Positions 10,438 through 63,965 of a stretch of DNA of 64,000 nucleotides are shown piece after piece. The translations under genes were made by a program, and so were the position numbers. The stretch lies in the NCBI GenBank assembly GCA_977020255.1, contig CDROCS010003124.1:124001-188000 (forward strand), written 5' to 3'. The DNA comes from Obrimoposthia wandeli (lineage: Eukaryota). Each line of letters begins with the position of its first letter. Positions within the stretch are counted from its first letter, which is position 1. The notes below the pieces were generated by a model. The model searched no databases and was not told the origin of the DNA. It saw only the letters and a program-made list of their open reading frames with translations.

Positions 10438-10596
10438 CAGTACGATTACAGCCGTTAAATTGCAAGTAATTACCTAGAAGACAGAAATTTTTGGAAATTG
10501 CCAGCCGGATTGAAAACAGTACGATTATAGCCGTTAAATTGCAAGTCATTACCTAGAAGACAGAAATTGTTGGAAATTGCCAGCCGGATTGAAAAC
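10438..10596. repeat. 79-bp tandem duplication in the LTR of copy 2
   Basis: CAGTACGATT...GCCGGATTGAAAA at 10438 and 10517. Confidence 0.9.
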
Positions 10597-10885
10597 AACA
10601 AGGTAAGAGAGAGTCGAAACAATTCCACCAACATTGAAACAGATCGCGCAGATAATCAGTGTAGCCTCCAGCCAAGCCAAGCTCGCAGGACCACAACGCA
10701 GAATAACCCAGCTATTCTCTCAATCGGTAGAGCACGGGACCTTGTGCAGAACGACACTTAGGAGCAGCATAGCGAGTTCGTCGGAACAATTTGGAATTGT
10801 CTTCTTGGAATTGTTGCAGATTGGAAGGTGAGCCGACACAATTTAGAAGGAATTTTGAATCACTATTATTAAATTCAGTGATAAA

Positions 10886-11739
10886 TTGATAAAAGTTTTA
10901 CGAGTTGAATTGATAAAGTTATAACTGACATTGTTCTATATAGATAATTGATAAAAGTTTTACGAGTTGAATTGATAAAGTTATAACTGACATTGTTCTA
11001 TATAGATAATTGATAAAAGTTTTACGAGTTGAATTGATAAAGTTATAAACTGACATTGTTCTATATAAATAATTGATAAAAGTTTTACGAGTTGAATTGA
11101 TAAAGTTATAACTGACATTGTTCTATATAGATAATTGATAAAAGTTTTACGAGTTGAATTGATAAAGTTATAAACTGACATTGTTCTATATAAATAATTG
11201 ATAAAAGTTTTACGAGTTGAATTGATAAAGTTATAACCGACATTGTTCTATATAGATAATTGATAAAAGTTTTACGAGTTGAATTGATAAAGTTATAACC
11301 GACATTGTTCTATATAAATAATTGATAAAAGTTTTACGAGTTGAATTGATAAAGTTATAACTGACATTGTTCTATATAAATAATTGATAAAAGTTTTACG
11401 AGTTGAATTGATAAAGTTATAACCGACATTGTTTTATATAAATAATCGATAAAAGTTTTACGAGTTTGAATTGATAAAGTTATAACCGACATTGTTTTGT
11501 ATACATAATTGATAAAAGTTTTACGAGTTTGAATGGATAAAGTTATAACCGACATTGTTTTATATAAATAATCGATAAAAGTTTTACGAGTTTGAATTGA
11601 TAAAGTTATAACCGACATTGTTTTGTATACATAATTGATAAAAGTTTTACGAGTTTGAATGGATAAAGTTATAACCGACATTGTTTTATATAAATAATCG
11701 ATAAATGTTTTACGAGTTTGAATTGATAAAGTTATAACT
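10886..11739. repeat. 62-63-bp tandem array, ~13.7 copies, inside the LTR of copy 2
   Basis: 14 unit starts from 10886 to 11698. The distal units alternate between two variants. Confidence 0.95.
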
Positions 11740-12322
11740 CGCATTTTGATTATTGAACTAAGGGATAAAGTTCGCATTGAAAGATTTTTCATAACCATTT
11801 TTAAAGATAATTTTAGAGTGAGTACTCTACCAATAATTAACAAGCGACTGTGCCCACATTTTAGAGCAATAAGCTCTCTAAACTCATTTCGTAAATTTAG
11901 AACAATCAGCCCTCCAGAAGACTTACTAATTTGCCCCGTCACAGTTGAGAGTACAGACTCTAGCGACCAACCCACCCTAAAAATAAAATCGATACGTGGT
12001 TCATCCCCACTTGTGTAGAGACTTACAGAAGTCTTAGGAATTGTACTGTAACTTTTTAGAAATACGTACGTAAACGTATTGCTTGTGTTAGTCTAGTGTG
12101 TTAACAATAAACGATTTCCTACATTAGAAAGCATTGTTCTAAACCCTTCAGATTAAGAGACATCGGAAAACAAACACCTTCAGATAAGAATTGAGACAGG
12201 CAACTATAACATTAAGTAGGCCACAACCATCCTTAAGTCCTGCTTCTATAAGAACGCACGTTGGGGCCCTCCACATTCAAGAGGATCTATAAGTTTTATA
12301 TAGAAACCCCAACATATTAAAG

Positions 12323-12341
12323 TGGTGCCCCGAGTGAGGAT
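12323..12341 (+). promoter_or_regulatory. Primer-binding site complementary to the 3' end of elongator tRNA-Met
   Basis: TGGTGCCCCGAGTGAGGAT differs by one base from the complement of the vertebrate elongator tRNA-Met 3' end as I recall it (TGGTGCCCCGTGTGAGGAT). Confidence 0.8.
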
Positions 12342-12449
12342 AGCTCGTCGGACACAGCGACTTCACATAGAATATAAGCAAATTGAGAATAAGTTACAGA
12401 AGAAGAAGATATAAGCAAATTGAGATAAGTAATTTGATAAGTTTGAGAA

Positions 12450-12620
12450 ATCGAGTAGATTTGTTCCTCTAATTAAGTAATTTTGGTAAAATTGTGAATC
12501 GAGTAGATTTGTTCCTCGAATTAAGTAATTTTGGTAAAATTGTGAATCGAGTAGATTTGTTCCTCGAATTAAGTAAATTGAATAAAGTTTGTGAATCGAG
12601 TGGATTTGTTCCTCGAAGTA
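12450..12620. repeat. 48-49-bp tandem repeat, 4 copies, in the leader of copy 2
   Basis: ATCGAGTAGATTTGTTCCTC core at 12450, 12498, 12546 and 12595; homologous to the 49-mer of copy 1. Confidence 0.85.
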
Positions 12621-12957
12621 ATTAATTGAATAGGTTAAGTTGAGAGACGTGTCCTCGAACTAATTAAATTGATATAAGAAATCGTAAAATAAGAATTGTG
12701 AAATAAGATAAAGTAATAAGTAAATTGATATCGTAAACGAATACATAATTGATAAGACAACGAATAATAAAAACGGACCCGCGTTTAATACTAGAAGACA
12801 AAGTCAGATTCCCCAGGAGGAGATAAATAATAATAATTTTAACCGAATTGATCAAGTTCCCCAAACAGATAAAAAAGTAATAGAAGAAGCCAGAATCGAA
12901 GAAAACGTATCAGAAAAAGACGTTAATCAATCAGCAGTTTCAACCGACAGTTTTTAT

Positions 12958-14865
12958 TTGACTGAATTATTTGGTGACATAAACCCAGAAGAATTTGAAA
13001 TTGCCAATCCAGTAGCGGTTGAGGAAATTCAATGGATTAATATTGAAGAAATAGTTGAGGAGGATATAGCTGAAAATATGGCTCACGCAGGAGCTCAAGC
13101 AGATAATAACCCAGGAGGTGTTGTAGGAGAAATGAATGCAGAACAGTTGGCACTAGCCTTAAATGCGACGTTGAGACCCAACTTTTCGGGATCATTGCAG
13201 GTTACAAAGTTTAAAAGAGATGAGGAAAGTATTTGTGACTTCCTCGCAGAATATTCGAGTTGTGCAGATGTTCAAGGATGGAACGATAAAGAAAAATGTG
13301 TCTGAGTGCAGGCACACTTAACCGGATTAGCACTTGAAGTGTATAAACATTTGACAGAAGCAGAACGTTTAGACTGGCCAACGTTGGAAAATGCTTTTAT
13401 TGGAAAATTAGTATTGGGAGACTTAGCAAAAGTGAATAAGCGAATCATGAGGGAACGGAAACAGAAACATGACGAAGGCGTGAATGAATACGCGTATGTT
13501 TTGAGAACCTTGGCCGCAAGAGCGTACCCAAGAAGAATAATGAGAAATCAGGACGGTATTCCTGTAGCTCAAGAAGCACAAGTAGCGGAAAATAACCGGA
13601 ACCAAAATGAAATGGCAGAAGTTTTGTTAGACATATTCAGAGGAGGACTGAAAAAAGATATTAAAGTGTTATTAGCAGTATCGGACACAAATGATTTTGA
13701 TAACACCGTACGAAAGGCGAGAGAGATCGAGAAAAATATAAAAAATAACGCAGCAATAGCAATTTACGCAATGACCGCAGGTGATGACGATAAGACAAAG
13801 GTATTTGTGAATAAGACAGAACCGAGTAATTTTCAGAATCGAAATTATGGACAAAATAAGTTTGAAAAAGGAGATGAATCCAGTAACGGAAACAGAGATA
13901 ATTTCCGAAGTAGAAATCGAGATGATTCGAGAGGTAGAAATAATAGTGAGTCTTGGAACAGGAATCGAGATGATTCCAGAGGTAGAAATAGTAATGATTC
14001 GTGGAATAGAAATAGAGATGATTCCAGGAATAGATTTAATAGAGATAATTCAGGAAATCGCCAACATTGGAAAGGAGACGATAGGAATTATAATGCAAAC
14101 ATAGGAGAGCGAAATGACTCTCGATTTGGAAATAATACAGGAAGCAGTGACGACAGATTCAATAATCGAGGAAGTGGTTTTGAATCGAATTTCCGAAGAA
14201 ATGATTTTAGAGGACGCTATGACAACAGACAGAATAGTCGTCGAGTACAGTTCGAAGATGAACAAAATAAGATAGATATTCGAGGGAGAATAATGTGTTA
14301 TACGTGCAAACAAATGGGTCACTACTCGAGAGATTGTACGAGAAGTAAAGAATTCGGAACTAACAGATTTGGAAATAATAATTTCGGTAATAATAATTTT
14401 GGAAATAATTATAGAGGATATAATTCACCCCCGCCATGGAATAGAGGTGGTGGATATACTCCGCAGCCATGGAGACCGAATAATCAGTATACAGATAGAC
14501 AACAGTCACCAGGTAGATACAATAACTATGCAGACAGACAGCAAGGAGCTGAGAGATACAATAATTACGTAGGTCAGCAAGGAGCTGAGAGATATAATAA
14601 TTCCGGTAGATATAATAATAATAATGTTGACAAGACAAATAGTCGTGAGAGTTCGCCGAAACCGAATGGAAATTTTAGTTACGTAAACGATGACAGTGAT
14701 AGGAATCGCGAGACCGAACTTCGACGCGAAATAGATTTCGAAGATAGTGATAGTAAATTTGAACGAATGTTGGGAATAATTAAAGATTCACCACATACAA
14801 AGATGGCGAATTCATCTACGTTGTCAAAACAAGAAAAAAAAGTCTGCACTCGAGAGAAGAGATGA
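12958..14865 (+). pseudogene. gag: gag of copy 2 (TGA at 13303-13305; A-run frameshift at 14834-14841)
   Basis: Capsid-like KFKRDEESICDFL...GWNDKEKCV*VQAHLTGLALEVY and RKQKHDEGVNEYAYVLRTLA; knuckle CYTCKQMGHYSRDC at 14296-14337. Confidence 0.85.
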
Positions 14866-16340
14866 ATGATTTAATGAATCAAATACTAGAAGCGTATGAG
14901 ACACCAATAGAGAAAACGTGTTACGCACAACCTATGACTGATCACATAGAAGCAGCAAGAAATGCTACGAGTATGGAACATGTGAAAAAGATAATTAGTG
15001 AAGCTAAAGAGACGTTGAATCAACCGTTAGATGAAACGAGCGAAGCTCCAGAAGTTTTGGCAAAACTACAAACAATTAAAGTGCACAGATTGGAAGAAGT
15101 GCGAGCAGAATTGGTTAAACATAGTCATGATTACTTGGGTTACAAAGAAGTATCACGAGGATTATTGAAAGGATATGGCCGTTACGTACAGAGATCAAAC
15201 CAAAAAGGAACGATGAAAATTTCACTTCGATTAAATTCCGGACAGATTATGCATGAAAAACTTAACGTATACCAAACAATGAAAACTATTCAAAAAAAGT
15301 TGGCCGAAAAACTTGAAATTGATGGAATGAATATGTTGTTCCATTATAAAGGAAGATCACTAGATGATGAAGACGTACCAATCGAGTGCGGATATCCAAT
15401 AGGAAACGAATTAGAGGAAAAAATTGATGTTATTACTGTAGAACGTCAAGAGTTAGTAGATAATGAAGGATTAAATGAGATATTAAACTCTGCGTTAGAA
15501 ATGATAAAAACGCCTATAGAAATGTTAGACAGTTCAAGCGAAAGCGGAAATAATGATGTAGCTGAAGCTTGGAACAAGACATCCACACCAGAACCGTACG
15601 TAGCTGAATTACAAGACGTGGAACTAGAAAATAAGTTGACGACTCCGGTGGTCGAAGTACCACCAGAACAAGAGATAATTCAAACCGGACAAGATGAAGT
15701 CACGGATATAGCCAACCAAGTGAGACAAAACGAAAACGAAACCCAACAAATTGGAGAAGATGAAATCTTCGAGATTGTAGATTTAGATTCACCAATTTGG
15801 CATGCTGCATACAGAGATAGACAAGTAGAGCAGATGATGCGACAAAACGAAGAGATTGGCCATGTAGAAGGACCAAGTCAAGAGATACAGTATAATGGTA
15901 AATCATATGATCCAGGAGAGAATCAAACTGAGTATCAGTATTTTCGAAGAGGACCTGGAAGACCTAGAAAGGACGGAAGTATATTACGAAATGTTCTAAC
16001 TGCACCACAGACTGATGAGGAGAGACATCTAAGCATTGGACAGCGAGCAACGTCATTAGAGCAGTATAGTACAGAGCGAAATGAAGATATCAGAGGTGAT
16101 ATGAATTCGGAAGCTCCAAGTAGTAAAGATATACTTACGGGAATTCTCAGGCAAGTGAAGCCGAAGTTGTTCAAAATGTACAAAGATGAAACAACCGATA
16201 TAACAGACAATTTGACTAAAGCAGTTAGATCACAAATGTCTACCGTGAATGACTGCGAATCATGGATACCATGTATCAATAGACAGATTTTACGATGGCG
16301 AAGTTTTAGCGAGATTATGTGGAAACCAGACTACAAATAA
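14862..16340 (+). CDS. Post-gag polyprotein segment: SUMO/ubiquitin-like domain (15213-15449), acidic linker, AT-hook (15945-15971), N-half of a Bcl-2-like domain
   Basis: MKISLRLNSG...LFHYKGRSLDDEDVPIECG...KIDV has a Ubl pattern. RRGPGRPRK is an AT-hook consensus. Contiguous with gag in copy 1. Confidence 0.65.
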   Translation: MNDLMNQILEAYETPIEKTCYAQPMTDHIEAARNATSMEHVKKIISEAKETLNQPLDETSEAPEVLAKLQTIKVHRLEEVRAELVKHSHDYLGYKEVSRGLLKGYGRYVQRSNQKGTMKISLRLNSGQIMHEKLNVYQTMKTIQKKLAEKLEIDGMNMLFHYKGRSLDDEDVPIECGYPIGNELEEKIDVITVERQELVDNEGLNEILNSALEMIKTPIEMLDSSSESGNNDVAEAWNKTSTPEPYVAELQDVELENKLTTPVVEVPPEQEIIQTGQDEVTDIANQVRQNENETQQIGEDEIFEIVDLDSPIWHAAYRDRQVEQMMRQNEEIGHVEGPSQEIQYNGKSYDPGENQTEYQYFRRGPGRPRKDGSILRNVLTAPQTDEERHLSIGQRATSLEQYSTERNEDIRGDMNSEAPSSKDILTGILRQVKPKLFKMYKDETTDITDNLTKAVRSQMSTVNDCESWIPCINRQILRWRSFSEIMWKPDYK

Positions 16341-16503
16341 AAAGTTAATTACAGCGATCACATATCTATGTTTCCAATTGACGGAACGAACGAGCCAACC
16401 TCACGAAGTCAAACAAGGAATAAATGAAGCAATGTATTTGATCGAGAATGTATTGCAGAAACGAATCGACGAAAACGGAGGTTGGGCAAAATTAAGAGAC
16501 TAC
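16131..16503 (+). pseudogene. Bcl-2-like domain split by a frameshift near 16340
   Basis: BH2-like KRIDENGGWAKLRDY (ENGGW at 16471-16485). BH3-like ILRQV...MYKDETTDITDNL. Reconstructed BH1-like EIMWKPDYK.KLITAITY. Confidence 0.55.
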
Positions 16504-16611
16504 GCTAAAACCATTGTAGAAATGAATGAAGACGATGAGGAACAATGTCATAAGAATCGTCAAAGAGAAAATAAACAATACCGTCCGAAAGAAATAAATA
16601 ATCAACCAAAT

Positions 16612-18800
16612 ATGTCCACAACGATGATGATGATGATGATGATGATAGTAATGTTTATGGGAATGCAACAGGCATCAGGATTAGTAGCATACGACTGTAG
16701 CGTACCAAAGATGGGACAAAAGTATTCACTGCTTGATAGCGAATATTGTCCCGAATCACAACCATCAAAATTAGAAGTTAAAGGTGTGGAAAACTACTTT
16801 GTGTATCAGGATGTTGATAAAATACAAGTAGAAGTGAAAGAATGTTCAGTCCATTCAAGTTATCACGAATTCTATTGTGGCCATAGAAGTTTTATGTCGT
16901 AAATCACACCTACCACACCGTACAAACCACATGAGGTTTTTCCGAGAGATTGCGAAGACGCATTTCGAACAGGAACAATAGAAATAGACAAGAATTACAA
17001 ACCTGATGTAAAAGTTGGGGTGAGACGATACGAAACAGTCACGAGAGTAGGACAACGATGGCCTGATGGATCTTGTGACGGAGGAACAAAAACGTGCGTG
17101 GAACCAAAGTAACAGAGTTAGTAATGGACGTAACTTACCAGATCGAATTAAAAACATGGACCGCCAATTTTGATAAAAAGACACAACGAATGATGAAGTA
17201 TCCGGAATGTAGAATGACAGATGCATCTTGTTTTACAGGTGAATCCACAATTGTGTATCACGTGAATCCAAAACAATGTTCTTTAGTATTTTTGAAAGAG
17301 ATTAGCTTTAATAAAATAAAAGGGTTCCTGTATAATAAAGATGGAGAAGGGTTCCTGTATAATAAAGTTGGAGAAGGATTTCATAATGAAACAAGACCAA
17401 TTCCTATGACGGCGACACCTACACTGTTAATGGCAACATCAACAGAAGAAGGATTGATATTTATTAAAAAGAGAAATAAAGCGCGATGCGGAATGACTGT
17501 TAGTACTACAAACTATCATGGAATAGTTTTGTTCAGAGAATTAATAGCATTGGCAGAAACCAATCTAAAACCTAGAGATATGCAGCTACACACGTATTTT
17601 AATAATAAAATTGATTTTTATTATCATAAAGGATTGATGCAGATGGAACAGTTATATCGGATGATGATCGAGAGAGATTCCCAGCTAAACAAAGAGATCG
17701 TAAGAACAAAGTTAGCATTATCTATTACGAATCCAGACATGGTAGCACCATTATTACCTTTAGATGAAGGAGTATTTGCTAAAACCATGGGAGAAGTATT
17801 GTATACTTACAAGTGTAATAAAGTAGAAGTACAGTTGAGAACAACAAACCGATGTACGAGTGAATTGGCAGTAACGAATAATTTAAAAGAACTTTTTGTT
17901 GAACCAATCACGAGAATGATACTTCCAAAAGACACTCCAACCAAAGAAATCAGCTGCTCTAATATAATGGCACCTGAATATTAGATGACGAATGATCTAT
18001 GGATAACTCTACCTGACCGAAAGCCAACGAAAACTTCAGAGATGATAAAAATGACGAATCTTAAAGGAAAAATGAAATTCGAAGCGGTAGAAAATATGGA
18101 AAATGCAGGTTTGTACAATGAAAAAGACTTAAAAGCGGCCTGGAACGAAATAATGTTTCCAGTAAAAAGGGCCAGAGTACTTACGGAGATGGTACATCGA
18201 GCATTACCGCCAGAAGCTAGATATGAGAATTTTGATATGTTATTATCGCCAAGTCATTTCAAGGAAGCAGCACATCAGACACTTAGAAAGATGTGGGGGA
18301 AATTCCTTGTTTTAGGACAATTATTTCCAGGTATCATAGGTATTTATGTTATAATTAAATTTGTGCAGTTAATTATAACCCAGGTGTTGTCTACGTATAG
18401 TTTATACAGGATAACTGGAATCACCTGGCAACTTATAATTGAATGTTTTCCATTTTTAGCGAAATATCTAATGCACCATCATCACGAGAACGAGTTGCGA
18501 GCCCTCAAGAAGGAGCAACATCAAACGAGAACCATGATACGAGAATCAAGAAACTATCGAGACGACAACGACGATGATAACGATAGCCCAGGAGAATATG
18601 CAAAGATACCAGGAAAACCAAAGATTCCGTTACCAGACAAGGAGGAAGTGACGCTAAACCTATATCCAATGAAGGAACTAAAGGAAGAGAAGGAAAAGTT
18701 CAAAAGAGGCATTTTAATGATAAGATGGCCTAAAGTGAACTACAGTGAGATTCCACAAGCAGAGGAAAAAGACAAAAAGATAATTCCAGAAGAATTCTAA
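16612..18800 (+). pseudogene. env: Chuvirus-type (class III, gB-like) envelope glycoprotein with stops and one frameshift
   Basis: Hydrophobic leader, then LVAYDCS, YCGHRSFMS, GSCDGG, YFNNKIDFYY, GEVLYTYKCNKVEV...CTSELAV...FVEPITRMI and C-terminal TM MWGKFLVLGQLFPGIIGIYVIIKFVQLII (~18291-18380). This matches the layout of chuvirus glycoproteins as I recall it. Stops at 16900 and 17982, frameshift near 17095. Confidence 0.75.
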
Positions 18801-27857: not shown

Positions 27858-28250
27858 TTAATAGAAGTATCCCATAATTTTTCCTCCTAGATGTTTCTTT
27901 CTAGCCTCAAGATGGTCCATAATACCCGCAGACGTGGTGACAACAATGAAACCGAACTGACGGGAAGGAAGTAATCTAGATGACCAGTTCTCCAACTTCT
28001 TGACGCTAGTATCAAATCTGGGGCTGATGACAGCACACTTGTTGATTCTTCCGTTCAATTCAACAACAATTTTGCCAGATCTGTGGTCATCAACAATGGT
28101 GAATTCTTTGATATAACCATGCTTCTGCATAACACCCAAAAACTGGATAATCACTTTCGAGCTAGGTCTGATAAGAACCTGTTGCTTACCTCTCTTCTCA
28201 GCATTATAAATACCATTTAAGGCATCAGCCAAAACATTCATACGGACCAT
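27858..28250 (-). CDS. RPS15A: 40S ribosomal protein S15a (uS8), intact, intronless, 130 aa
   Basis: [11 protein letters not shown]...[18 protein letters not shown]...[27 protein letters not shown]...[21 protein letters not shown]...GGKIMGYFY. Length and termini match the family; true start is the ATG at 28250. Confidence 0.96.
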
Positions 28251-29474
28251 TTTATATACTAATTTCAAATATATTAAAATTAAATTTATAGAAAAATGTT
28301 ACCTTTTAAATATTTCTTTCTACAACTATATATAAATATTAAAACAAAGTTCTTCAAATTTCAAATTAAAAAATTACACTTTAATTTAATATGAAAATAA
28401 AGAATTTTAAAAATTTAAACGTATTATAGAATATTTATATTCAATGATTTGTGATTTGATAAAATATTAACAATTTTAATAAAGTTTAATGATTGTTATT
28501 AATCACAAAAATAATTTAACTATTTATTTTTAAGATTTTTAATTACAAACATGTTTTCAAATAAAACAATTAAATGTCAAAATATTTTTATTCCGTGAAT
28601 TTTACAATTTCAATTGATAAAATTTTTTGTCATTATTTTATTTAAAACCTTTTTTTTTCTTCAAAATTAGAAGAAGAAAAATCATACTGTTAACTTGCAC
28701 ACCTAATGAAGGTGTCATGTGATATAAATACAAATACAGTTCCTTTGCTAATAATCAGTAAATTCATAATTCAGAAAATGTTTAAAGTAATTTTAAAATA
28801 TCCTAATTATTTTACAATGGATATTTCTTCAGAGTACCTTGAAAAACTTTTTTCAAATTAAAATTATACAATACTTTTTACTTTAGATTTACTTTTAATT
28901 AAATTTATATTATTAGGACAATATATCGATTAAACATACAATAATATCAAATAGAAATAAACAATAAAATAGAATATCCATTTTCACTGGAAGTTATTAA
29001 ATAGTTATGTAGTCGTTTAGTATGCCTACGCTTATGTCAAGCTTGATTACTGTGTCAAGAAAAACATGTGATTTCCTAACAATAGTTGAGACAGAGACCA
29101 TGTCGGGTTTGAGAATTTAGTAATTATCCTTCTTGTTTCTTTTCTTCAATGTATATGCATGGAAAATTGATTTAATTTTCTTATTTTCGGGAGTATTTTT
29201 CTGAGTCACCTCAATTTGATTTTTGTCAGAAATAATTACTGAAATGAATAGTTAGTTATTTAAACTCATATTCAATTTTGAATGGTTATTTAACTTTAAA
29301 TACATATGTATGTATATGTATGTATGGGTTTTGTTTATACCATGTTTGTGTGTATTTATGTATGTATATGTTAGTATTATTTATTTATAGCATGTGTGTG
29401 AGCATATTTTTATATTAAAAAACGTGTGTGTGCAATTGTTTTTATGTATATTTTAAAAAATCATACATGAAACA

Positions 29475-29679
29475 TGTTAGGTAAATAATTATAATTATAA
29501 TCTCACAATTAACTAATTAATTGAATGTTTGTACCTGTATGATTGCATAACTAATTGTCTCCATATTATTGCACAACTACATGCATTTCCCCACAGAACG
29601 CTTTACTTAAAAGATCACACAGAACGAGAACGGCATATTTGGTGTTTAATATAGTTTGAAGTATTATACAGACTTAACA
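29475..29679 (+). repeat. Probable short LTR (TGTTAGG...CTTAACA)
   Basis: The end is defined by AACA directly followed by a PBS. The start is inferred only from the inverted-terminus match. Confidence 0.45.
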
Positions 29680-30759
29680 TGGCGACCACGCAACAAGAAT
29701 CAAGGAAGCTGATTCCACAACCAAAAGAATATACAGAATCAGAAGAAGTTGAAGAGTTCCTGCCTAAGATCAGGTCATATTTTGAAATGATATCACTGGA
29801 TGTCAGCCAAAGAAATATTCTGATTAGAGCATTTATTCCCGAGAAATATCGTGAAAAATATGACAAGAAGAATTATGAAGATAGGCTTAAAGAAGCATTT
29901 GACAAGAAGCCGGATTTAGAAGTAGACCTATTCAATGCCTTGAAATACAAGAAAGGTAATGATTCCGTTGACACCTTCATTCAGCGTATCGAAAATAATG
30001 GGGAGAATGTAATGCGACACAAGATTACGGCCTCCAAATTAACAGAATTCTTACTAAAATTCTGTCTCGATGCTGAGTCGATGTTAGAAGAAATGAACCG
30101 ATTCGAACTCACTGGTGACATTTTGAAGATGAAACCAAATCCAAGCAACGAAGAAATGGAGACTGAACAAAAAAGACCAACAAAATTTATCAAGGATATG
30201 ATGAAGAAATTGGAAGAAAAAAAAAATAAAGTCAATAATTGAAAAACCGATATTTTCTTTAAATAATCGAACTTATGCTGGAATTGTGAAAAATGGAAGA
30301 CCTGCTCATCGAAATCCAATGAACATGAAGCAAAATCAAGGAGCAGCTCAGATAAGGTTTGAAAATACATAGAAAAACGAAAACTATGAGCGATGACAAT
30401 CTTATTACTGCAGTGAGGTTGGACATATTAGACGAGAATGTCTTCACAATCATTGTTCATTCTGCGCACGAAATGGACATATGATCAACCAATGCTATCG
30501 AAAACTTTATCAAGGTAATAAAGGATACATGCAAAACTATGGTTATCAGCGAGATCAGCAAGTACCAAATGGCAGTTTTGGACAAGAGCGAAGATACCAG
30601 CGAGATTGTGTTCCTGTCCATCAGCTAAGAAATCAGCAGAGATACCAAGGAACTGACCAGATAAAGAAGCCAGTTGCTGTCATCGATGACGACTACATGA
30701 CTGTGGAAAAACCGAATAACAGCCAGGCGGAAAATGAGTTGGCTCCATCAAACGGGTAA
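29679..30759 (+). pseudogene. gag: gag-like gene of a second LTR element with two zinc knuckles; no pol seen
   Basis: PQPKEYTESEEVEEFL and KYKKGNDSVDTF, then after frameshifts YYCSEVGHIRREC and CSFCARNGHMINQC (~30400-30500). Confidence 0.7.
29680..29690 (+). promoter_or_regulatory. Primer-binding site, tRNA-Arg(TCG) type
   Basis: TGGCGACCACG matches the recalled complement TGGCGACCACGAAGGG over 11 nt. Confidence 0.6.
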
Positions 30760-33639
30760 ATGATCGGAGCTATGAATCTAATGTAAGTAGTTTTGTAAAT
30801 TATTTGAAGACAATTAAGTTTGACTGTGATAAAGAATGTATGGATGGTGAGTTTGATTTCAATAGTTTGAATAGTAATGTTTTATGTGATACTGAGAATG
30901 GTGAAAAAATTAAAATAAATAATGATTATGTAGATTTTATTGAAAATTATTTAGTTAATGATTTATTTAATCAACAAAAAATATGATTAAAGTTTTTTAA
31001 CTGTTGGTTATGATAATAGCGATTGAGTTGAATAATGTAATAATTTGTAAACCGTTCGGAACAATTAATAATTGCTTAATGAATTTTAATTTTTTTAATG
31101 ATCAATCTTTAACCCAACAATTCTAGCGAGTTATAAAATAGTAGTAAGGAAATAACTATAAGACATGGCTTGTTATAATGTAATTTGTCAATCAGATATT
31201 GTTAACGTTTTAGGTATAGTGATAACATATGTGAGGAAATTAAACCATTCTTGTCATGCACTATAATACCCCTGCATCGGCAGTGTTCGTTAATAACACA
31301 GTCATTGGAAACTCTGCTATCTTCTTTGGCCGAGGGTTCATCGACCGTAGATTAAGACGATGGATTCGCACCTAAACCGAAATCTTTAATAAACTCAACC
31401 CCTCTGTACAAAAACAGTCGCCCAGTGCCAACAGCGCCATCCACACCACCATGGGAACCCTCATCACTTCGGTAGGTGGATGTGTTTGGTCTAACCCACC
31501 CGGGGGAACCACTGTCCTTTAAAACCGTGCATTTGTGAAGTGAAATTTCGTGCATGTGGGTGTATAAAAATCTATAAATGTCCTGAGACATAAACACTTT
31601 CAAAAGTACAAGTGCAGTTTACTGGCAGTGAATGGTACAATGGTCAAGGCAGCAAAAAGAGGGGTACAGAGATCTCAATATATCGATCTGACTAGTCAGG
31701 ATTTGATTGAAAATTGGGAAGAATGTACTCAGAAAAATGCACAAGCCGCTGTTCATTCATCAACTTCGGCGGAAGCAGCAAGGAAACCGTTGGAGACACA
31801 TACGAGGAAGATGAACAATCACTTTGACAATGTCAAGACTGGCATCAATGTCCAATGTCAGTGGAAGATGATCCCGTTGTCTCAGCCAGATACAGTCTTC
31901 GCACCCGACTCCGACAAGGAGCTCTTCAGTGATTAGGTACCGTCGGATCAGGAGGAGGATAACTTTACTCTTTTCATCGACGAGTGGGTTGACCTCACTC
32001 TGAATCTTCCAACAAATAGCAATGTTGCAGCCAGAAATGACTCAATGATTGCTGAGTTAAACGAGGTTGAGTGAAGTCTCTTCACATACGACTGAGACGC
32101 TCTTACTCCAGCTGCTACTCCGATTCCTACACTAACCGCAGACGATATTGGGCCTGTAGTATTCAGAAGGCCACAATCTACTGTGAGACAAGTTAGGAGA
32201 ATAAACGCCACGAATGAGGTTAGATGATTTATTTATTTCATATGTTTTTAATTTTTTTTTCATAAACCTTTGCTGGATATAACACTATCGATGACTTTGG
32301 TGGAGAGAATGCTTGAACCGGAGATCTTAGCAATTCATTGCAGCCAGGAGTTGCCTAGGACTGAGCTGCAATATCTGGCATCATACAATAATATTCAAGT
32401 GAATTATTTAATATCAGAAAATATTATTAATTATTCATATAGGAAGCCGACCAGGTGAAGCAAGTGGAGTAAATGCAGGAAGAGGTTGCTCCTATATTGC
32501 TTACCGGTAGACCGAAAATAGGGGGTTATGCAAAAATTCAAGGAAGTGCCAAATCAAGACACAGTCAATCAGGGGGAAGATGGCGAAATTTATAAAACAA
32601 TCAAACCTGTCTGTTAAAGAGTTAAATTTTAATATATATTAACTACATTAAGTGTAGGATTGAGGAGTGACTGGAAGAATCTACTCCTATTCCTTCAAGG
32701 TGGAAGCAGCAGGTGGTAAGACAATCGTACACCACAATCGTACTTCAGTGGTATCAATTATGAAAAACATTTCAGTTTCTGATTCTCCATAAAGGAATCT
32801 AAACCTCGTTTTGATATTTTTTTATCTTCAAAGTAACAAAGTTTGCAAAACGTATACAAAATATCTGAGACGCTAAAATTATGCTGGAAACTAATCGGTA
32901 AACATACAATTTCGGTTTCCAATTTATAAGATAAAAGAATGCGTACCGAAATATCATTGCCAATTAAAATTATTATTGTTTCTTTCCACTAACCATAACG
33001 ACTTCGACATCCTAAAACGAAATCTAAATTTTCTAGTCTCTTCAAGGTAAAATATGTGGATTAGTGAATTTTAGTGAAATATGGTATGAAATAATTAAAT
33101 AGATTTATGGTCAAATTCGTATTATTTTATTAAAAGTATGAATTTAGTCTGTTACTGAGGCTACAAATTATAAACCATCATATTAGATAATGATGCATCC
33201 GATAACGACGATACAGAGATACAAGTCAACACACCTAGAGCAAGTTTGGATAATTTGAATTTACACTATGTAAACACAATAAAATCTTAATTTATACAAT
33301 ATATGCAATTATATAACAAACTGTAGAACATTACAAAATTAAAATGTTAAACATGTTCAATTTTACAAATTAATTTTAGTATTTAATTTTTTAATGTCAT
33401 TCTTATACTGGGGTTGTAGTTCTAAATTTTATAAAAATACGTATATAGCAATATAAATTGCTTTACAAAAAGAAAATTAAATAAAGAAAACTGTGGAAGT
33501 GCATTTTGTTTAAATGTATTACCGTACTTCCGCAGTTTCAGTTTCAGAAAACATAAATACCAATATGGTATAAATAATGAAATTTAAATAAACATTAGTA
33601 AAAATATTTGGTATTCAAATTAGACAAGTTTCAATTTTC

Positions 33640-34500
33640 GATTTAGAGTAGACAGTTCAGACTATTTGGTTTCAATGGAAAATTTCGGAATGTAGTGTCG
33701 GGGTCGAGAAATCAGTGTTATTTTAATGAATGCAAATAAATGTTCAAGTTATGCGATGGAGTTCAACTTTTTAATGTTAATGTCAAAATTGAAACAAACA
33801 ATGGTAGCAGATAGCGAGGTTAGTACCGGTCAAATCGCTGAAGATGGAAAAGTTGCTGAAATGAATCTATCAACAAAAGTAGTAGATATCGTGTTCAATG
33901 TTCCTAATGCTGCTTCTGATAGCGAACGTCGAGCGGTTCTAGATGCTGCATAAATTGCGAATCTTAACTGTATAAAACTTATCAATGATACAACTGCATC
34001 AGCAGTTGCATATGGTCTCTACTATCCGAATTTCCTAGAACCTAAGCAAAAATGGAGACAAGTAGCATTTATTGACATGGGATACTCAACATTGCAAGCA
34101 AATATTGTTGCTTTTAACAAAGGTAAAATGTGAGTAGTTGCAAGTACGTGTGCAGATGTGGGTGGAAGATACTTTGACCGTGTTATTTATGAGCAGGCAA
34201 AGATCAACTTTGAGACCATTTTCAAGTTGGATGTATTTGATGGAAAGAAACCTTCTATTCGTCTTTCTCAGGAATGTGAAAACCTTAAAAAATTGATAAG
34301 TGCAAATTTCAATGAGATCCCAATGAATATTGAATGTTTCATGAATGATGTTGATTTTCATATGCGAACGAAGCGAGATCATTTCGAGAATCTTTCACCC
34401 TCTCTATTACAGGAGGTTAAGGAAACTCTTTCGAAAATATTCGAAGAAGCTAAAATAAGTATATATGATATACAATCTGTGGAAGTTTTGGTTGGTGGTT
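33640..34500 (+). pseudogene. HSPA4: HSP110/HSPA4-family (Hsp70 superfamily) pseudogene fragment, no introns seen
   Basis: SERRAVLDAA*IANLNCIKLINDTTASAVAYG...FIDMGYS...AFNKGKM*V...GGRYFD...RLSQECENLKKLISAN...IECFMNDVD...VEVLVGG is collinear with the HSPA4 ATPase domain; two nonsense codons. Confidence 0.85.
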
Positions 34501-35665
34501 TGGTACAAGGAGGTCGTGGTGATCGACCGAGTGTGACGGCTGTATTTTGAGTCGAAATTTGTTGAGGTTAATCTGTTAGGTTGTGGTGACCTCTTCAAAT
34601 TGGCCAAAAGTTAAAAGTAATAAAAGGTTGTGATGGCCCCTTCAAATTGCCTCGGAAAGTATACGAAGGTATTTTGTTGGGGGATTGGGTTTTGTAATTT
34701 TGAATAGAATAAATAAAAAAGACTTAATTTTTTTTACTTTATACATATAAATAATTATTACGGCATTAAGAGAGAAATGTCATGGAGTAATATAGTTGGG
34801 AGCGATTTCAGAAATAATCAAATATTTCATAAGGCTGTTGGAGACGTCGTTAAAAAATTATATTTAAAAGAAGTGACAAAAGTTGTTGAGGAGAACCCAA
34901 AGGTCGTAGAGGAGGCAACCAAAGTTACTGGGGAAGCAGTAAGGTTGCTGATGAAACACCAAAGGCTGGTGAAGAGGATCCAGAGGCCAAAGAAATGGAG
35001 CTCCAGAACGGGTCGATGATTCATCTGTGATTGATTTTGAAACTGTATCTTCTTATGTCTCTTACCCTATGTGTGAATTAAATAATAAAATAATAAAAAA
35101 TCAACCTCTTGCCACACGAGTCAACAGAACTCCACAAACCTGTAAAGAACTTGTCTCAGGAAGCAGAAAGAGTGGAGAGTCTGTTAACCGGAGGCAAGGC
35201 GAAAGATTAAAAATATTAATAATAAAAAAATAGCAAAGACAATAAAAAAATGCTGCAGAAAACAAATATAGGAAAGAGAGAAAAAGGAAAAGAGATAGAG
35301 GGAGGAGGATGAGAGATTGAGTGTCCTATTGAATAAGTTGGTTAGAGGAGAAGAAAGGGAGAAACTTTTAGAGGATATAGGAGGACAAAGCTGGATCAAG
35401 GAGGTAGTCAAAGCCATTAAATATCAACTACCCAGAATAAAGATCGAAATTTTTTCAAAAGTACACAAAATAAAATGATAAAAAGACCGAAAAACTGCAT
35501 AAGAATTGGAACTTAGAAGAAGAAGAAAAACAGAAAGTGGAAATAGCGATAGAAGAACAAGGAAAGGTCAGAAGAAAGCAGGGGGATAAAGGAATTTCAA
35601 ATGAAGAATTAAAAGTATAACAGCTGAAGAAAGAAAAGTAAGACCATCACAATTAAAAATAGTGG

Positions 35666-38040
35666 ATGAAATGTACGAGGCAAAATGGACTTATAAAGGA
35701 AAGAAGATTAAAGTTAATCCAGATGGCAGCTACTCAAAAAGAGAAAATGTACTTAGTTAATAAAAGTTTTAATAATTATATCTTGCTTTTTGAGTTAGAA
35801 AAGAAGCAAATATTTGTAAAAACCTTTAAAGGGGAAATAATAAGCGTTTTCACGTCTATGGACACTAAGATAATAAAACTTAAGGATATAATAAACGAAA
35901 AATTAGGATTACCTACAGAGGTACAAAACTTAACCTTTGAAGGAAAATAATTAGGAAATGAATTGAGGTTAAGAGATTATAAAATCAATAAGGGAAATAC
36001 ATTACACCTCATACTTCAGTTAAAAGGAGGTTCAGATGAGGAGAGAATCTTAGGTTATCGTGAGGAAAAGTTGAGAAAAGCCTTGTACGAAAAAAGATAC
36101 AAAAAGGCACAACTGACAAGGACTAGAAATTTAGCAATTCAGGCCATGAGAAGTGGTAAAGAAACCGATCGAAGGTTGAAAGACTATGAAGATAATTTCG
36201 AGATGGTATCAGGAGAGCTAACAGGTTTACAAGGGTTAGCTTCTGATCTGGGAAGACAAGAGGGGGTAAATGAGTTAGAGAAAGAATTATAAGAAATAAA
36301 TAAGTTGCACGACGAATTAGGAATACTTTCAACAGAACTGCTAAGAACAAATATGGAAAGCAAAAGAGCATCCACAACGAGCAATCAATCAAATAATAGG
36401 AATGAATTTACAGAATTAAAAAGGTTAACATATTCCTATATTTAGTGGTCAAAACTCAAATTACGAAAGTGGAAAACAACATTTAACGAATAATTCGGAA
36501 AAAAAGGGTAGTAAAAACAAGCAAATTATTTCATATGCGACAGTATTTAGGATCGGAACCATTTAGATTGGTAGAAAATTTAGAATTATCAGAAGAAGCT
36601 TATGATAAAGCATTAGAAAGATTAGAGAAAATATATGGAGATGACAAAAGAAATGATCGAAGCGTATTGAAGGACGTTGAGAAGTTAAAAATAATGAGAC
36701 CTGATGAAGTCTCAGAATTTGAAAAGTTGTCAGAATTATTAGATAGGACATTAGTAAAATTAAGAAGTTAGAACAAAACTGAATATTTAGAAAACAGTTA
36801 CTTGTATCAAACATTCTTAGGAAAGTTACCTCGTCAAGCAATGTTAGAATAGACAAGTTGGAAAAGACGAGAAGGTAGAGAATATTCTCTAGAAGACAAG
36901 CTGATATGGGCCCAACTAAAGATGGAAGATTTAATGAAAGCAGAAGAAGTATGTCAGGATACTAATAGAAAACCTGAGCTAGGAGACACGTTTGTCAAAA
37001 TGGATAGATATAATCAAAGGCAAACATATCCTAGAAGAGAAACATATTTTGGGGACACATTTGAGAAAATAGTTCCACAAGAACGGTTCCTGAAACATGG
37101 AAAAAATGAAAGTCGTACATGAAGAAATACTAAAAATTGAAAAGTATTCTAGTTTGACAAGAATAAAAAGGATAAGAGCTTGGATGGATCGATTTATAGA
37201 TAATTGTAGAAGGAAAAAAGAAGTGCAGATAAAAGGAGAATTAACCGTTGAAGAAATGGAACTCAGTATGAGTAAGCTGATCAAATAAGATCAAAGGAAA
37301 TATTTCCAGATAGAAATAAAAAGGTTAGTGAAGACTGGGTAAGTCTTAAAAATAGCAAAATCTTAAAGTTAAGATCATTTATAGATGAAGGAGAAATTTT
37401 AAGAACAAACTCCAGATTAATTCATGCTGAATTCTTAAATTATGATAGTAAGTTCTCAGTGATAATTTCAGGTGAAGGATGGCTAGTAAGGTTAGTAGTG
37501 AAAGATTTACGTGATAGAAATTTTCCCTACGCCGGAATCTAGCATATATTAAGTCTACTACAGAGAATATTTTGGATTTTAAAGGCTCAACGATTAATTA
37601 GAAAAATTATAATGGAATGTGTGATTTGCAAAAGAGCAAATGCAGCCCATTTGCAAAATATGATGACACCATTACCGAAGTTCAGATTGGAAGAACCACT
37701 AAGGGCGTTTGTAAGAGTCGGTGTGGATTTTGCAGGACTTTTTTTGACAAAGCAAGGTCGGAGAAAAGTAAGAGCAAAAAGGTATGTTTGTTTATTTACT
37801 TGTCTACAGACTCGAGCGGTTCATTTGGATATGGCTTATGTTTTGGACACTGATGCATATGTCAGAGCGTTTAAAAGGTTCATGGGAAGAAGAGGACGGC
37901 CAACATTAATGTTGTCTGATAACGGTTTGAATTTTGTTGTAACAGCAAATCTAATAGAAGAAGTTAAGTTCGATACTTATGCACTTAAAGCAGAGTTAGT
38001 AAAGAATGATATTAGATAGGTTTTCAATCTGCCTTTGTTG
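35666..38040 (+). mobile_element. Internally deleted BEL/Pao LTR retrotransposon (ubiquitin-Gag, RNase H end, integrase)
   Basis: KAQLTR and YLGSEPFRLVENLELSEEAYDKALERLEKIYG (Pao Gag). YSSLTRIKRIRAWMDRF. CVICKR...GVDFAG...YVCLFTCLQTRAVHLD...FKRFMGRRG...SDNGLNF (Pao integrase). No RT present. Confidence 0.85.
35804..36031 (+). pseudogene. Ubiquitin domain at the N-terminus of BEL/Pao Gag (TAA at the conserved Gln)
   Basis: KQIFVKTFKGEII...KLKDIINEKLGLPTEVQNLTFEGK*LGNELRLRDYKINKGNTLHLILQLKGG is collinear with ubiquitin and ends in GG. Confidence 0.85.
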
Positions 38041-38409
38041 CCCATCGCGGAACTCGAGACGATCTTACCATTACTGCACGTAGCAAATACATTAGGAGCA
38101 GACGGCAGATCCCACAGTAAGAGGTTATTTAATATATATTAAGAAAGATAATTGACTATTCCACTCCTTATAAATTAGAGATCAGCAAATTCAAGAAGAA
38201 TATTCGAAATTAGAGCAAGCACTGATAGTAGTAGAAAAATCAGAAGAGAGGAAATCGCCCAGCAACCGAATAAATCGATTCGAACTGGTGAGAATCGAAG
38301 ATCCTCGGAAAAGGAAGAGGATCACTTACAGGAGTTGAACATCAATCAAAGGACGTGGAAAGGACTGGTCGCACGGACGAAATTCGGAGAATTTAAACAG
38401 TAAAGGTCA

Positions 38410-38790
38410 TCGAAAGAAATATTTATTTTAAATTGTTTATAATATTTTAAATTGTTTAAATTGTATAAAAGTATAATCGAAAGAAATACTTATTGGAAAT
38501 TGTTTATAATACTTGAAATTGTTTATAATATTGAAATCATATAAAAGTATAAATGAAAACAAAACGTATTTGAAATTGTTTGTTATATTGAAATTATATA
38601 AAAGTATAATCGAAAGAATACTTATTTGAAATTGTTTATAATATTGAAATCATCTAACAGTATAATCGAAAAAAAGTATTTAAATTGTTTATAATATTGA
38701 AATCATATAAAAGTAAAATCGAAAACAATACTTAATTGAAATTGTTTGTAATATTGAAATCGTGTAATAGTATAATTGAAAGAAATATAA
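38410..38790. repeat. Degenerate ~55-65-bp AT-rich tandem repeat, ~6 copies
   Basis: Recurring TCGAAA...GAAATTGTTTATAATATTGAAATCATATAAAAGTATAA. Confidence 0.75.
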
Positions 38791-38906
38791 TACTTTGTAA
38801 TTGGGCGAATCATAGACTTGTAAAGGATATCGACTCCCTTAAAACATAAAGTAGTTTTTCGTATAAAAGGAGTAAAATTAGTTGAGGGTCATCCCATTAC
38901 CTAGAG

Positions 38907-39246: not shown

Positions 39247-41346
39247 ACCTAGAGTGTTGGAATTAATATAGTTTATTTTAGACGTTCTTAGTCGTATAAT
39301 TTGTTTAGACATTTTTGATTTTGTTTCGTAAATAAATTGTTTCTTAAAAACCGATTAATTGATCTATAAGCCACCAACCACATAGACGTAAACACCACTA
39401 ATCTATAGGTCGGGCGAGGGTCAATCACGAGACGGTGTTTCAAATAATGGGGTATTTGAAGATTGTGTGTCCCAATATTACCGGAGGAACATCGTTATCA
39501 TCGCTTGATTCCGGCTCTTTGTAATTCATTTTGGTCTAGGTTTCTAACCAGACCTTTCCTGAAATTAAACTCCTAACCCCTAAGTACATATAACACCACA
39601 TACTAGCTCATTTGTGAACACAACTCCTTTATCATACTACAAGACAATAAGACACAAAAATCCTTCAGATTTGAGACTAGAATTAAGTAAGAAAAGAACG
39701 GGTATGCCAAATCCATCTGTAAGCCCTATCGCTACAGAACTCACATTTGGAGCCTTCATACGAGGATCTAATTGAAGAGTTTCAAATAGAAACCACAACA
39801 AAGACAGAAGGAGAAAATTTGTGTGTGAGAGATAACCAAAAAATTCCAGTCAACATATTTGTGCTGTTCAGTGTTCCCTGTTTACAATCTTCGCCACAAT
39901 ATTCAAATCGAGGCTGTAGCTACAATAAGAAACTGATAAGTTCGATCAGATATAGCAGTTTTTACGCAGTTTTTGCTGTTGCTTTCTAGAAATTTGGATA
40001 AGTCCATGACGGCACCAAAAATAGTTGAACAGTAGAGGGATAATAAACAAAAACCAGTCAGCAGAGGCAGGTTAAGGGTATCGGAAAATCAATAGCTAAT
40101 TTGACCACTATCCCTATCGGTCCCAGTTACAGCCGATGCTCCGTCTGGGTGGTACTTCTAACTACTAACGGTGTTTCGATTACATATTGAACTGACAGTA
40201 CGTGATTATTCCGTTCTGCAATCTATTTGGGTTTGCAGGTATTTATTTATTTTGAGATACATCTATGACTTATTATATATACAATGGCGATGGGCAGGAA
40301 GGAATTGACTGCTGACGAGGGCAACGGTGACGGTAGGAAGTTCACGTCGCCGATGCAGACATTCTCGCATACTCACAACTGATAGCAGATAATGAAGGAT
40401 ACGGAAAGATAGGAAGAGATATGTGCAGCTACGGCCAGTTTAACTACTGCTGAAACTTCGCCGTCTCAATCCACAACTCCTAGGTGGTTCTGGGGAAAAT
40501 ATTTTATTTTCACTTGCACTTTGTTTCGATTGCAGATCAAACTGGCCAACAGTGGACCGTTTGATATATCATAAAATCTCCCAATTTTAACGTATTATTT
40601 ATTTTATAGTGTTTTCTTTGATTTTAAGTGCACTCAACAACGACAAAACCAGAGATAACAACATCTACGACCGCCAAAAGAGCCCATTACATAGCAAAAC
40701 GGTCAATAAGATTGACTTTTGCGGTCTGAGTCTATATCACCGATTGTGGACATTTTGGTTTTTAATTATTTTAATAACATTTTATAGTAAACGCAAACCT
40801 GTCATGACAATTCAAGTTAACATATAAAACATATATTCTTTATTTTAAAGCCTATCATGGCTTCAATACAGTTTCCATTAAACTCTTCGCCATCGTCATA
40901 TATAAGGCGACTAATCGGACATTTATGTAAAATATGTTAATCAGTTAGTTCAAGATTGAAAGTATTTAAATAAATTTAATTACTATAAAAGAAAAGAAAG
41001 AATAATGAATAATCCCAAATGTAATTTACTCTAACAATTTATCATTCTTATTATAATTTCAACAAAATGTCTTTGTTATTATTATAACAAATCTAATTAT
41101 TCTTGAATTCTTTATGTATTTTCTATTCTTTTGTAAAGTTTACATATTATAGAATTATACTTATAGCTTCATAATATTTACATTATATTACATTGTTTGT
41201 GACTCAATCTTCATGTTTCACAATGCATATTTTATAATTCAATTTTATTTAATTAATATAAACCACATGATAATAAAAATAAGTTAATTATTAAAATCTT
41301 AACCTTAAAGAAAATTAAAAATTTTATTTAAAATTTAAACTTTTCT

Positions 41347-42231
41347 ATGACTATTGAAAATAATAATGATAAGAAAACCAAAAAATTGGATAAAAATTAT
41401 TCAATTCGAATCAATTGTTACAAAGAGCTCTTAGATAATGTTCGTAATCAGCTTGAGTACGTTGAAGATTTCCATGAAGTTACAAAATCAGCCTGTATTG
41501 AATATCCTGAATATAAGAAAGTTGAAGAAGTTCTTAAAAATGCTCTAAATTATTTTACCGAATTTTCTCATAAATTGATAGAAATAGAGGAACATTTTTC
41601 TGTGGATTATCATCTTTTTATTGAATTAAAACCATTTGTAGAAGATGTCAAAAGTATTTTCTCTCCGTATTTAAATATGCAGGATCAAATAACCAATTTG
41701 TATCAGATTGTTAAAAAAAATCCTCCTCTTTTCATCACAACATTTTCAAAATTGGAAGACAAAATTCGTCAAAAAGGATCATCAGCAATATTTATGAAAT
41801 TACAACAGTTTCTAGTCCATTTAGACAGTAGAATAATGGACATAATTACCTATACAAATCCACTCAACAGTGATTTAGAGAATTTAGACTCATTACACAA
41901 TTTAGTTAAATCATTTACTACAGAAATGAATCAAGTTTCGGAATATCAATTAACTTATGCTAAATTGACTCAGATTCAAAAAGTTATGAAGAAAGCATTA
42001 GAATTTAGCTCCCATAGTCGTCTTTTAGCAACAATAGATTGTATGACTATGAAAGGCGATGGATTGTGGTTTCCAGCGACAATTTTGGTTATGAATGATT
42101 CGATGATATTTGCCAAATTTTATAATAAACCGGCCATAGAAAAAGAATATAAGAAGATATGCAAAAAGATCGATTTTAGACACACGAATGGCACGGCGGA
42201 TGACAACATATCGGTGAGTCTAACTGTATGA
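41347..42231 (+). CDS. Divergent Dbl-homology/PH (RhoGEF-like) protein; the 3' end may be spliced
   Basis: 294-aa open frame: ELLDNVRNQLEYVEDF, helical core ending FTTEMNQ...AKLTQIQKVM, PH-like RLLATIDC...ILVMNDSMIFAK. Possible splice donor GTGAGT at 42214. Confidence 0.55.
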   Translation: MTIENNNDKKTKKLDKNYSIRINCYKELLDNVRNQLEYVEDFHEVTKSACIEYPEYKKVEEVLKNALNYFTEFSHKLIEIEEHFSVDYHLFIELKPFVEDVKSIFSPYLNMQDQITNLYQIVKKNPPLFITTFSKLEDKIRQKGSSAIFMKLQQFLVHLDSRIMDIITYTNPLNSDLENLDSLHNLVKSFTTEMNQVSEYQLTYAKLTQIQKVMKKALEFSSHSRLLATIDCMTMKGDGLWFPATILVMNDSMIFAKFYNKPAIEKEYKKICKKIDFRHTNGTADDNISVSLTV

Positions 42232-63040: not shown

Positions 63041-63965
63041 ACACGGTATCTGCATATGGAAGAATGATTACAGATGATTTATTTATTTGTCTGCTGCATT
63101 TTTCTGCTGGTTATGTGGTCATTAATGCACAAGTAGTGTTCAAATTTATCGTAAAAACATTTCAAAATTGTTTTTGCTATTGTAAATAGCATTTTTACCT
63201 GTTCATTTAACCATTTAGCCTCCGCTACTTGCTGCAGTTATTATGATTAACTAGACATTCTAAGAGTTTTGTAAATAAATTCTTTGAAAATAATATTTTG
63301 CATTCAGATTATTAAATTTCATACAGTGAATAATAACACGGTATCTGCATATGGAAGAATGATTACAGATGATTTATTTATTTGTCTGCTGCATTTTTCT
63401 GCTGGTTATGTGGTCATTAATGCACAAGTAGTGTTCAAATTTATCGTAAAAACATTTCAAAATTGTTTTTGCTATTGTAAATAGCATTTTTACCTGTTCA
63501 TTTAACCATTTAGCCTCCGCTACTTGCTGCAGTTATTATGATTAACTAGACATTCTAAGAGTTTTGTAAATAAATTCTTTGAAAATAATATTTTGCATTC
63601 AGATTATTAAATTTCATACAGTGAATAATAAAAAAATGGAAAACAAATCTTAGAAATATGGAAGAATGATTACAGATGATTTATTTATTTGTCTGCTGCA
63701 TTTTGCTGCTGGTTATGTGGTCATTAATGCACAAGTAGTGTTCAAATTTATCGTAAAAACATTTCAAAATTGTTTTTGCTATTGTAAATAGCATTTTTAC
63801 CTGTCCATTTAACCGTTTAGCCTCCGCTACTTGTTGCAGTTATTATGATTAACTAGACATTCTAAGAGTTTTGTAAATAAATTCTTTGAAAATAATATTT
63901 TGCATTCAGATTATTAAATTTCATACAGTGAATAATAAAAAAATGGAAAACAAATCTTAGAAATA
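63041..63965. repeat. ~295-307-bp tandem repeat, 3 copies
   Basis: ATATGGAAGAATGATTACAG at 63054, 63349 and 63656. Confidence 0.95.

Follow-up and report, generated by a model that had tools for sequence, protein, structure and literature searches.

An internal, diverged ubiquitin domain lies in frame before Gag in a BEL/Pao retrotransposon family

Ubiquitin inserts of pestiviruses are near-identical to host ubiquitin, and in the cytopathic pestiviruses BVDV Osloss and CP Rit the captured ubiquitin is internal and lies directly before a protein that needs an exact N-terminus. The polyproteins of retrotransposons are generally regarded as being processed by the element's own protease. UCHs cut the internal ubiquitin of BVDV CP Rit from NS3, giving the true NS3 start, and the CP Rit ubiquitin lacks its first residues and is preceded by a host piece, S27a (PMC8310069). 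Such inserts are independent acquisitions of single strains (PMC13517609). Cellular precursors such as ubiquitin-L40, ubiquitin-S27a, FUBI-eS30 and the algal ubiquitin-actin also place a unit ending in Gly-Gly before a partner, and the ubiquitin-like FUBI leader is cut by USP36, for which the diglycine is required (PMC8354635). Among LTR elements, the giant Gypsy elements Burro/GYPSM1 of planarians carry ubiquitin-like and other host-derived domains in their polyprotein (PMC6431247), and LTR-mediated retroposition brings host mRNA pieces into LTR elements (Tan et al. 2016, PMC5131818).

The window, i.e., the whole 64-kb stretch of DNA analysed here, holds an element in which an LTR end, a tRNA-Met primer site, an Hsp110 piece, a degenerate leader, ubiquitin, Gag and integrase follow one another in this order (Table 1). 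As in the cytopathic pestiviruses, the ubiquitin is internal and stands directly before a protein start, and as in CP Rit a host piece lies upstream of an N-terminally altered ubiquitin. Unlike the pestivirus inserts, the domain is fixed across families, is 26-56% diverged where whole and belongs to a germline retroelement, and cleavage has been shown for the pestiviruses, whereas it is proposed here. The cellular fusion precursors are host genes starting at Met1, whereas the present domain is internal in a mobile element, has no Met1 start and has no near identity to a canonical ubiquitin unit (33/75 identical residues in the window, 43/76 and 56/76 in the relatives P0079 and P0065 described below). 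Burro differs in being Gypsy rather than BEL/Pao and in carrying its ubiquitin-like domain after Gag; in the Burro-like element of the window this domain is remote (Pfam E 0.005) and lacks Gly-Gly. The chimeras described for LTR-mediated retroposition are young retrocopies, whereas here the captured piece is fixed before Gag; the process would nevertheless account for the entry of both Hsp110 and ubiquitin. A literature search covering titles and abstract openings, with Repbase Reports and most subscription journals outside its coverage, returned none on ubiquitin-Gag in BEL/Pao.

Table 1. Features of the ubiquitin-bearing element, in window coordinates
Feature	Position	Strand	Remarks
Probable 5' LTR	33507-33800	+	3' end supported, 5' start tentative
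Primer-binding-site-like 10-mer	33802-33811	+	complement of the 3' terminus of initiator tRNA-Met
Captured internal Hsp110 (HSP105/HSPA4-type) coding piece	33843-34502	+	220 codons, intron-free, two stops
Degenerate purine-rich coding-like leader	34717-35803	+	upstream of ubiquitin
Diverged ubiquitin domain	35804-36031	+	76 codons; stop at position 49; Gly-Gly at 36026-36031
Gag N-terminal helical region	36032-36400	+	begins Ser-Asp, in frame with ubiquitin; stop at 36290-36292
BEL/Pao Gag core (DUF1759)	36487-37059	+	different frame, with stops; Pfam, tblastn
Integrase region, H2C2 finger and core	37276-38019	+	breaks off near 38.03 kb

Three characters of BEL/Pao elements were found in the window copy, namely a DUF1759 Gag, an H2C2 integrase after Gag and a primer site after the 5' LTR, and one was missing, namely protease, RT and RNase H between Gag and integrase. 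Pfam DUF1759 matched at 36487-36768 (E 2e-8, above the cut-off), and tblastn with the Gag of P0079 spanned 36490-37059 (E 2e-16). The start of Gag was recovered independently, in that a Gag N-terminus profile built from four relatives, with the window row excluded, gave a single match in the six window frames, at 36068-36337 (E 5.2e-13). The match of Pfam Integrase_H2C2 in the integrase region (E 4.2e-5) was just under the cut-off. No Pfam match to protease, RT or RNase H lies between Gag and integrase in the window copy, the gap from Gag to the pre-integrase part being about 0.2 kb, and their absence was read as an internal deletion.

The Flow BEL/Pao family NC-63 of Schmidtea mediterranea (de la Chaux and Wagner 2011, PMC3118150) has in common with the window element a DUF1759 Gag and an integrase core with 69 of 108 residues identical, by an ungapped comparison by eye of 37693-38016 with the supplement of that paper. 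Two look-ups of the motif KRY[VL]CLF in its supplements each matched one family, both of them Flow, and a shorter term, TKQGR, matched two further families. The integrase comparison and the motif look-ups point to the Flow group, and the window element is best explained as one decayed member of a BEL/Pao LTR retrotransposon family that is present in many copies and likely belongs to that group. Taken with the Burro-like neighbour, the resemblance to NC-63 would suggest a planarian-like host. Relative to Flow elements the window copy is without protease, RT, RNase H and a 3' LTR, and no second LTR copy was found in the 64-kb window. The main text and the searchable supplement text of PMC3118150 do not mention ubiquitin; the element sequences of that study may hold the same fusion unannotated.

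Residues 2-76 of ubiquitin align to the span listed in Table 1 without a gap (in phmmer, single ubiquitin chains of the PDB matched with E about 1e-12), and Pfam ubiquitin matched it with E 8.3e-15 when the stop was read as X. An earlier note on this DNA had claimed that ubiquitin ending in LQLKGG continues in frame into SDEER...KAQLTR and a Pao Gag, which phmmer, Pfam and the independent Gag profile bear out. It had also described a single TAA as the only lesion in the domain, and this is correct: the sole interruption is the TAA at 35948-35950, at ubiquitin position 49. About 0.7 stops would be expected in the domain if 5% private decay is assumed, and not one indel occurs across the 76 codons despite 56% divergence. 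The fusion stands as far as the in-frame junction is concerned, but in the window copy the fusion is not open as far as the Gag core, since Gag contains the stop at 36290-36292 and is frameshifted near 36.4-36.5 kb.

The window was compared at 80% likeness with contigs of four runs, all from one sample that is possibly the source of the window. The region 33.7-38.1 kb was covered far deeper than by single contigs, and the depth dropped past 38.1 kb. Over ubiquitin and the Gag start the depth in run X2 was 8,437-16,870, compared with 37-53 for the listed contigs; such summed depth is evidence of many copies only, not of a copy number. At least three contig pieces, among the 32 listed (with 11,199 others), cross the ubiquitin-Gag junction and extend 31 or more bases to either side of it; their differences from the window number 22, 33 and 32 letters. 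Tail position 72 is a Lys codon in nearly all other contigs (41, 33, 26 and 15 contigs across the four runs), indicating that Gln is peculiar to the window copy and that the family tail is LKLKGG. The ubiquitin-Gag fusion is real and family-wide, and it is probably old. The window copy is badly decayed and rearranged, as might be expected if a ubiquitin pseudogene and a Pao fragment had met at this locus only, by chance or by misassembly; this explanation, to which we assign almost no probability, is refuted by the diverged contigs that bridge the junction and by four unrelated database proteins that share it.

These four proteins were found by a phmmer search with the ubiquitin tail and Gag start against 1.84 billion representatives (a 50%-identity library), which gave 139 matches, nearly all polyubiquitins, four of them crossing the ubiquitin-Gag junction in one stretch. 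P0079 (479 residues), encoded on a JGI contig 1,831 bases long, contains in one open frame a whole ubiquitin ending in LRLRGG, followed by SD, the Gag start and DUF1759 (E 3e-12). P0124 contains a ubiquitin tail, LRLKGG, followed by MD and DUF1759 (E 6e-15), also in an open frame. In P0065 a whole ubiquitin leads through SD into the Gag start and is preceded by 89 residues of open frame with an RRM-like piece; the RRM-like match (Pfam E 0.0065, and assigned in the Atlas with rather high confidence) is taken as a lead only. P0109 has half a ubiquitin that ends in Gly-Arg instead of Gly-Gly and is followed by SD. Gly-Gly is thus present in three of the four relatives, or four of five sequences with the window included, and all five continue with Ser or Met and then Asp. 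The Gag starts are pairwise only 24-43% identical, which indicates that the relatives are separate families.

The earlier note had considered that intact relatives might lack ubiquitin or that the fusion might be unique to this dead copy; instead, the other copies and the four clusters carry it. Its question whether Ub-GG-Gag is conserved and open in relatives is answered positively for openness in all four clusters and for Gly-Gly in three of them. Since the query held the ubiquitin tail, it favoured matches bearing a tail and Gly-Gly and left Gag relatives without ubiquitin invisible, so that the search supports recurrence of the fusion, not its presence in all relatives.

A profile search returned P0079 alone among 8,000 scored candidates, and there was no match in word-indexed protein searches with the ubiquitin-Gag start or, among longer proteins, with the Gag core. 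Locus pattern searches gave 52 pattern matches on viral contigs and 590 on metagenome contigs, none of which was confirmed, and none of the 66 loci (20 viral, 46 metagenome) matching a degenerate ubiquitin-tail pattern had a Pao Gag; since the pattern itself required Gly-Gly-Ser-Asp, these starts carry no weight as evidence. None of the DUF1759 clusters of the Atlas, assigned there with high confidence, was shown with a ubiquitin family. As a side observation, among the loci L001, L023, L026, L031 and L039, near-canonical ubiquitin was joined via Gly-Gly-Ser-Asp to a KH-domain protein on giant-virus and metagenome contigs, and on other contigs to eIF5A, actin and an eIF2B/eIF5-domain protein.

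It is conceivable that ubiquitin was a passenger, acquired by template switching and tolerated in frame, while the element's own protease frees Gag. Capture of host mRNA pieces by LTR elements, in sense orientation and in frame, is frequent (PMC5131818), and the Hsp110 piece lies in the same element. Nevertheless, such a passenger would have had to keep an identical placement before Gag in five lineages with strongly diverged Gag starts, and to remain free of indels while its conservation was biased to the core, and this explanation is considered quite improbable.

The bias was examined at 18 positions that we take to form the ubiquitin core. In the window, 14 of these 18 match ubiquitin compared with 19 of 57 positions elsewhere (Fisher p 0.001), and in P0079 the numbers are 14/18 and 29/58 (p 0.03); the enrichment was not significant in P0065 (p 0.45), P0124 (p 0.36) and P0109 (p 0.20). 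Surface sites have drifted in the window (L8F, R42N, I44T and V70I) and in P0079 (I44L, H68Q and V70A), and in both the drift falls on the surface bound by ubiquitin receptors and by the activating enzyme. Retention of Gly-Gly in four of five sequences has a naive chance of 0.006, a figure that assumes independent lineages and comes from a search that favoured Gly-Gly. In a structural model of P0079, ubiquitin folds, the RGGS link (residues 90-93) is a low-confidence coil before a long helix, and the Gag start is predicted to contain long helices, the Gag core being of low confidence. From this pattern we infer that ubiquitin was kept for its fold and tail and not as a signalling ubiquitin. 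Deubiquitinases may recognise the domain less well in the window's family, from which R42, I44 and the tail arginines have been lost.

Selection on the hydrophobic core would also be seen if ubiquitin stayed attached as a folded module of Gag, at its N-terminus or internally, serving solubility or docking to the proteasome or ESCRT, as the ubiquitin-like domain of Burro seems to do. The absence of Gly76 in P0109 and the Ubi2/SUMO-like domain held inside the polyprotein of Burro elements (PMC6431247) are in line with this explanation. However, the window and P0079 have lost much of the receptor-bound Ile44 patch, in contrast to the flexible Gly-Gly tail, which persists in four of five sequences, and the absence of Gly-Gly from the Burro-like domain of the window indicates that the tail is not retained by default. 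An uncut module is judged unlikely, though it is the most plausible of the alternatives to cleavage by host enzymes.

The 3' end of the LTR, which reads ...AAACA at 33796-33800, is supported by the summed depth of run X2, which falls from about 50,000 to about 3,400 past bin 33684-33867, and by 12 contigs with loose ends at 33800 that run into unlike sequence; their low agreement (0.49) is expected where repeat copies enter different flanks. The start of the LTR was guessed from TGTTT at 33507 and from a contig whose match starts at 33505. One contig joins the integrase (38011) to 33683, which ties the LTR to the opposite end of the element. TGGTAGCAGA, located one base after the LTR end at 33800, is the start of a tRNA-Met primer site as given in PMC1797187 and PMC3587641.

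The Hsp110 piece aligns with residues 125-344 of HSP105 (6gfa; E 6.5e-52), matches Pfam HSP70 (E 3.9e-49) and is multi-copy in the sample contigs. A joint between 33967 and 35764 (runs X1 and X2) links it to the ubiquitin side in another copy, and further joints, 33681 to 35717 and 33687 to 35403, link the LTR to the ubiquitin side in other copies; all three were read as deletions. A polypyrimidine-AG stretch just 5' of the domain might have been a splice acceptor, but the joint that lands on it is flanked on either side by a 5-base repeat and occurs in contigs not recorded as RNA, so that it was read as a deletion. Likewise, placement of the Hsp110 piece within the LTR was rejected because the repeat end at 33800 puts the piece 3' of the primer site. 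Within 33500-33860 no match to Hsp110 was found in the PDB (two of three frames) or in Pfam (all three frames). In the stretch 33774-33860, KLKQT is encoded at the very end of the inferred LTR and AEMNL where the Hsp110 piece takes up again, 54 in-frame bases starting with the primer site lying between them, and the corresponding LKET and AENSL are adjacent in HSP105. The Hsp110 piece may thus extend into the LTR, where it has no significant match. The leader that follows has one stop-poor frame per 300-base step, the frame shifting along its length, and it gave no match in Pfam (three frames) or in the PDB (one frame).

The earlier note, whose span begins with the ATG at 35666, had treated ubiquitin as N-terminal and had suggested that the element might use it to raise Gag expression, and neither is supported. 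The ATG sits 46 codons 5' of the domain, and 35666 is probably not the family start, given this distance and the indel differences between this copy and others within 0.6 kb 5' of the domain. Position 1 of the domain is Lys in the window, Ile in P0079 and Ser in P0065, i.e., Met1 is absent from all three sequences that reach it. An N-terminal, expression-raising tag of the ubiquitin-L40 or ubiquitin-S27a type, preceded by an untranslated leader, could draw on the fact that natural N-terminal ubiquitin fusions are common (PMC6332867, and the 66 loci above), and splicing or an alternative start codon could place translation near the domain. These residues at position 1, the 89 upstream residues of P0065 with their RRM-like match, and the window leader, stop-poor in one frame at a time, make this explanation improbable, more so than an uncut module.

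The explanation that we favour, and consider probable by analogy with the cytopathic pestiviruses, is that host deubiquitinases cut after Gly-Gly and free Gag from the upstream leader. The features of the pestivirus arrangement are found here, namely a folded ubiquitin that is internal in the three readable sequences, ends in Gly-Gly in four of five and lies directly before Gag. The proposed pathway would start from the ubiquitin-Gly-Gly that stands in frame before Gag in the window, in other copies and in distant relatives, and from the coding-like sequence upstream of a ubiquitin lacking Met1, with its apparent host-gene pieces (Hsp110 here, RRM-like in P0065). Translation would begin upstream, near the LTR or the primer site, and run through leader, ubiquitin and Gag. 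A host enzyme of the USP or UCH type would then cut after Gly76, as the selection pattern and the precedents suggest. The freed Gag would start with Ser-Asp or Met-Asp and might assemble unburdened by the leader. Such starts are stabilising and acetylatable under the N-degron rules. The proposal of the earlier note that host deubiquitinases define the N-terminus of Gag thus fits the fusion in other copies and in the four clusters, and pestiviruses are the right model for it, the cleavage step itself being put forward by analogy. If this is true, the element is a germline parallel to the pestiviruses in which host deubiquitinases set the start of a capsid protein, deubiquitinase activity would be a host step able to gate transposition, and there would be a reason why captured host gene pieces are tolerated upstream of Gag.

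A further possibility, more doubtful than the cleavage itself, is that the ubiquitin spacer makes the front of the element a modular "cargo-ubiquitin-Gag" cassette, in which host mRNA pieces captured in frame between the LTR and ubiquitin are made as separate proteins without harm to Gag. The lineage might then capture, test and swap domains, such as Hsp110 in the window and the RRM-like piece in P0065, and the released cargo, ending in a free Gly-Gly, might in those sequences that retain Arg72 (P0079, P0065 and P0124) become attached covalently to proteins of the host.

Several other features were observed in the window. The Burro-like Gypsy element occupies 12.7-24.7 kb (+) and comprises a Gag with a zinc knuckle, the ubiquitin-like domain, RT, RNase H and integrase, with a Monjiviricetes-type fusion glycoprotein between gag and pol and a BIR plus RING (IAP-like) region flanked by two aspartyl proteases. 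Its layout matches that described in PMC6431247 but is much shorter here. The 5' part of this element is present a second time in inverted orientation, at 2-2980 (-), which is 93-96% alike to 12666-15646 (+) and is separated from it by tandem arrays. A piggyBac-type transposase fragment was found at 5876-6313 (-) (DDE_Tnp_1_7, E 2e-15), and an apparently intact, intron-free frame of the ribosomal protein S8 family, presumably of the S15a type, at 27858-28298 (-). Broken Gag-like frames with two zinc knuckles at 29655-30986 (+) are likely the remnant of another LTR element. Low-copy sequence with short tandem repeats occupies 38040-38835, starting where the integrase breaks off, and at 41332-42231 (+) lies a frame of 299 codons for which Pfam gave no clear match. 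Three near-identical 300-base tandem copies are located at 63054-63955, at the end of the window.
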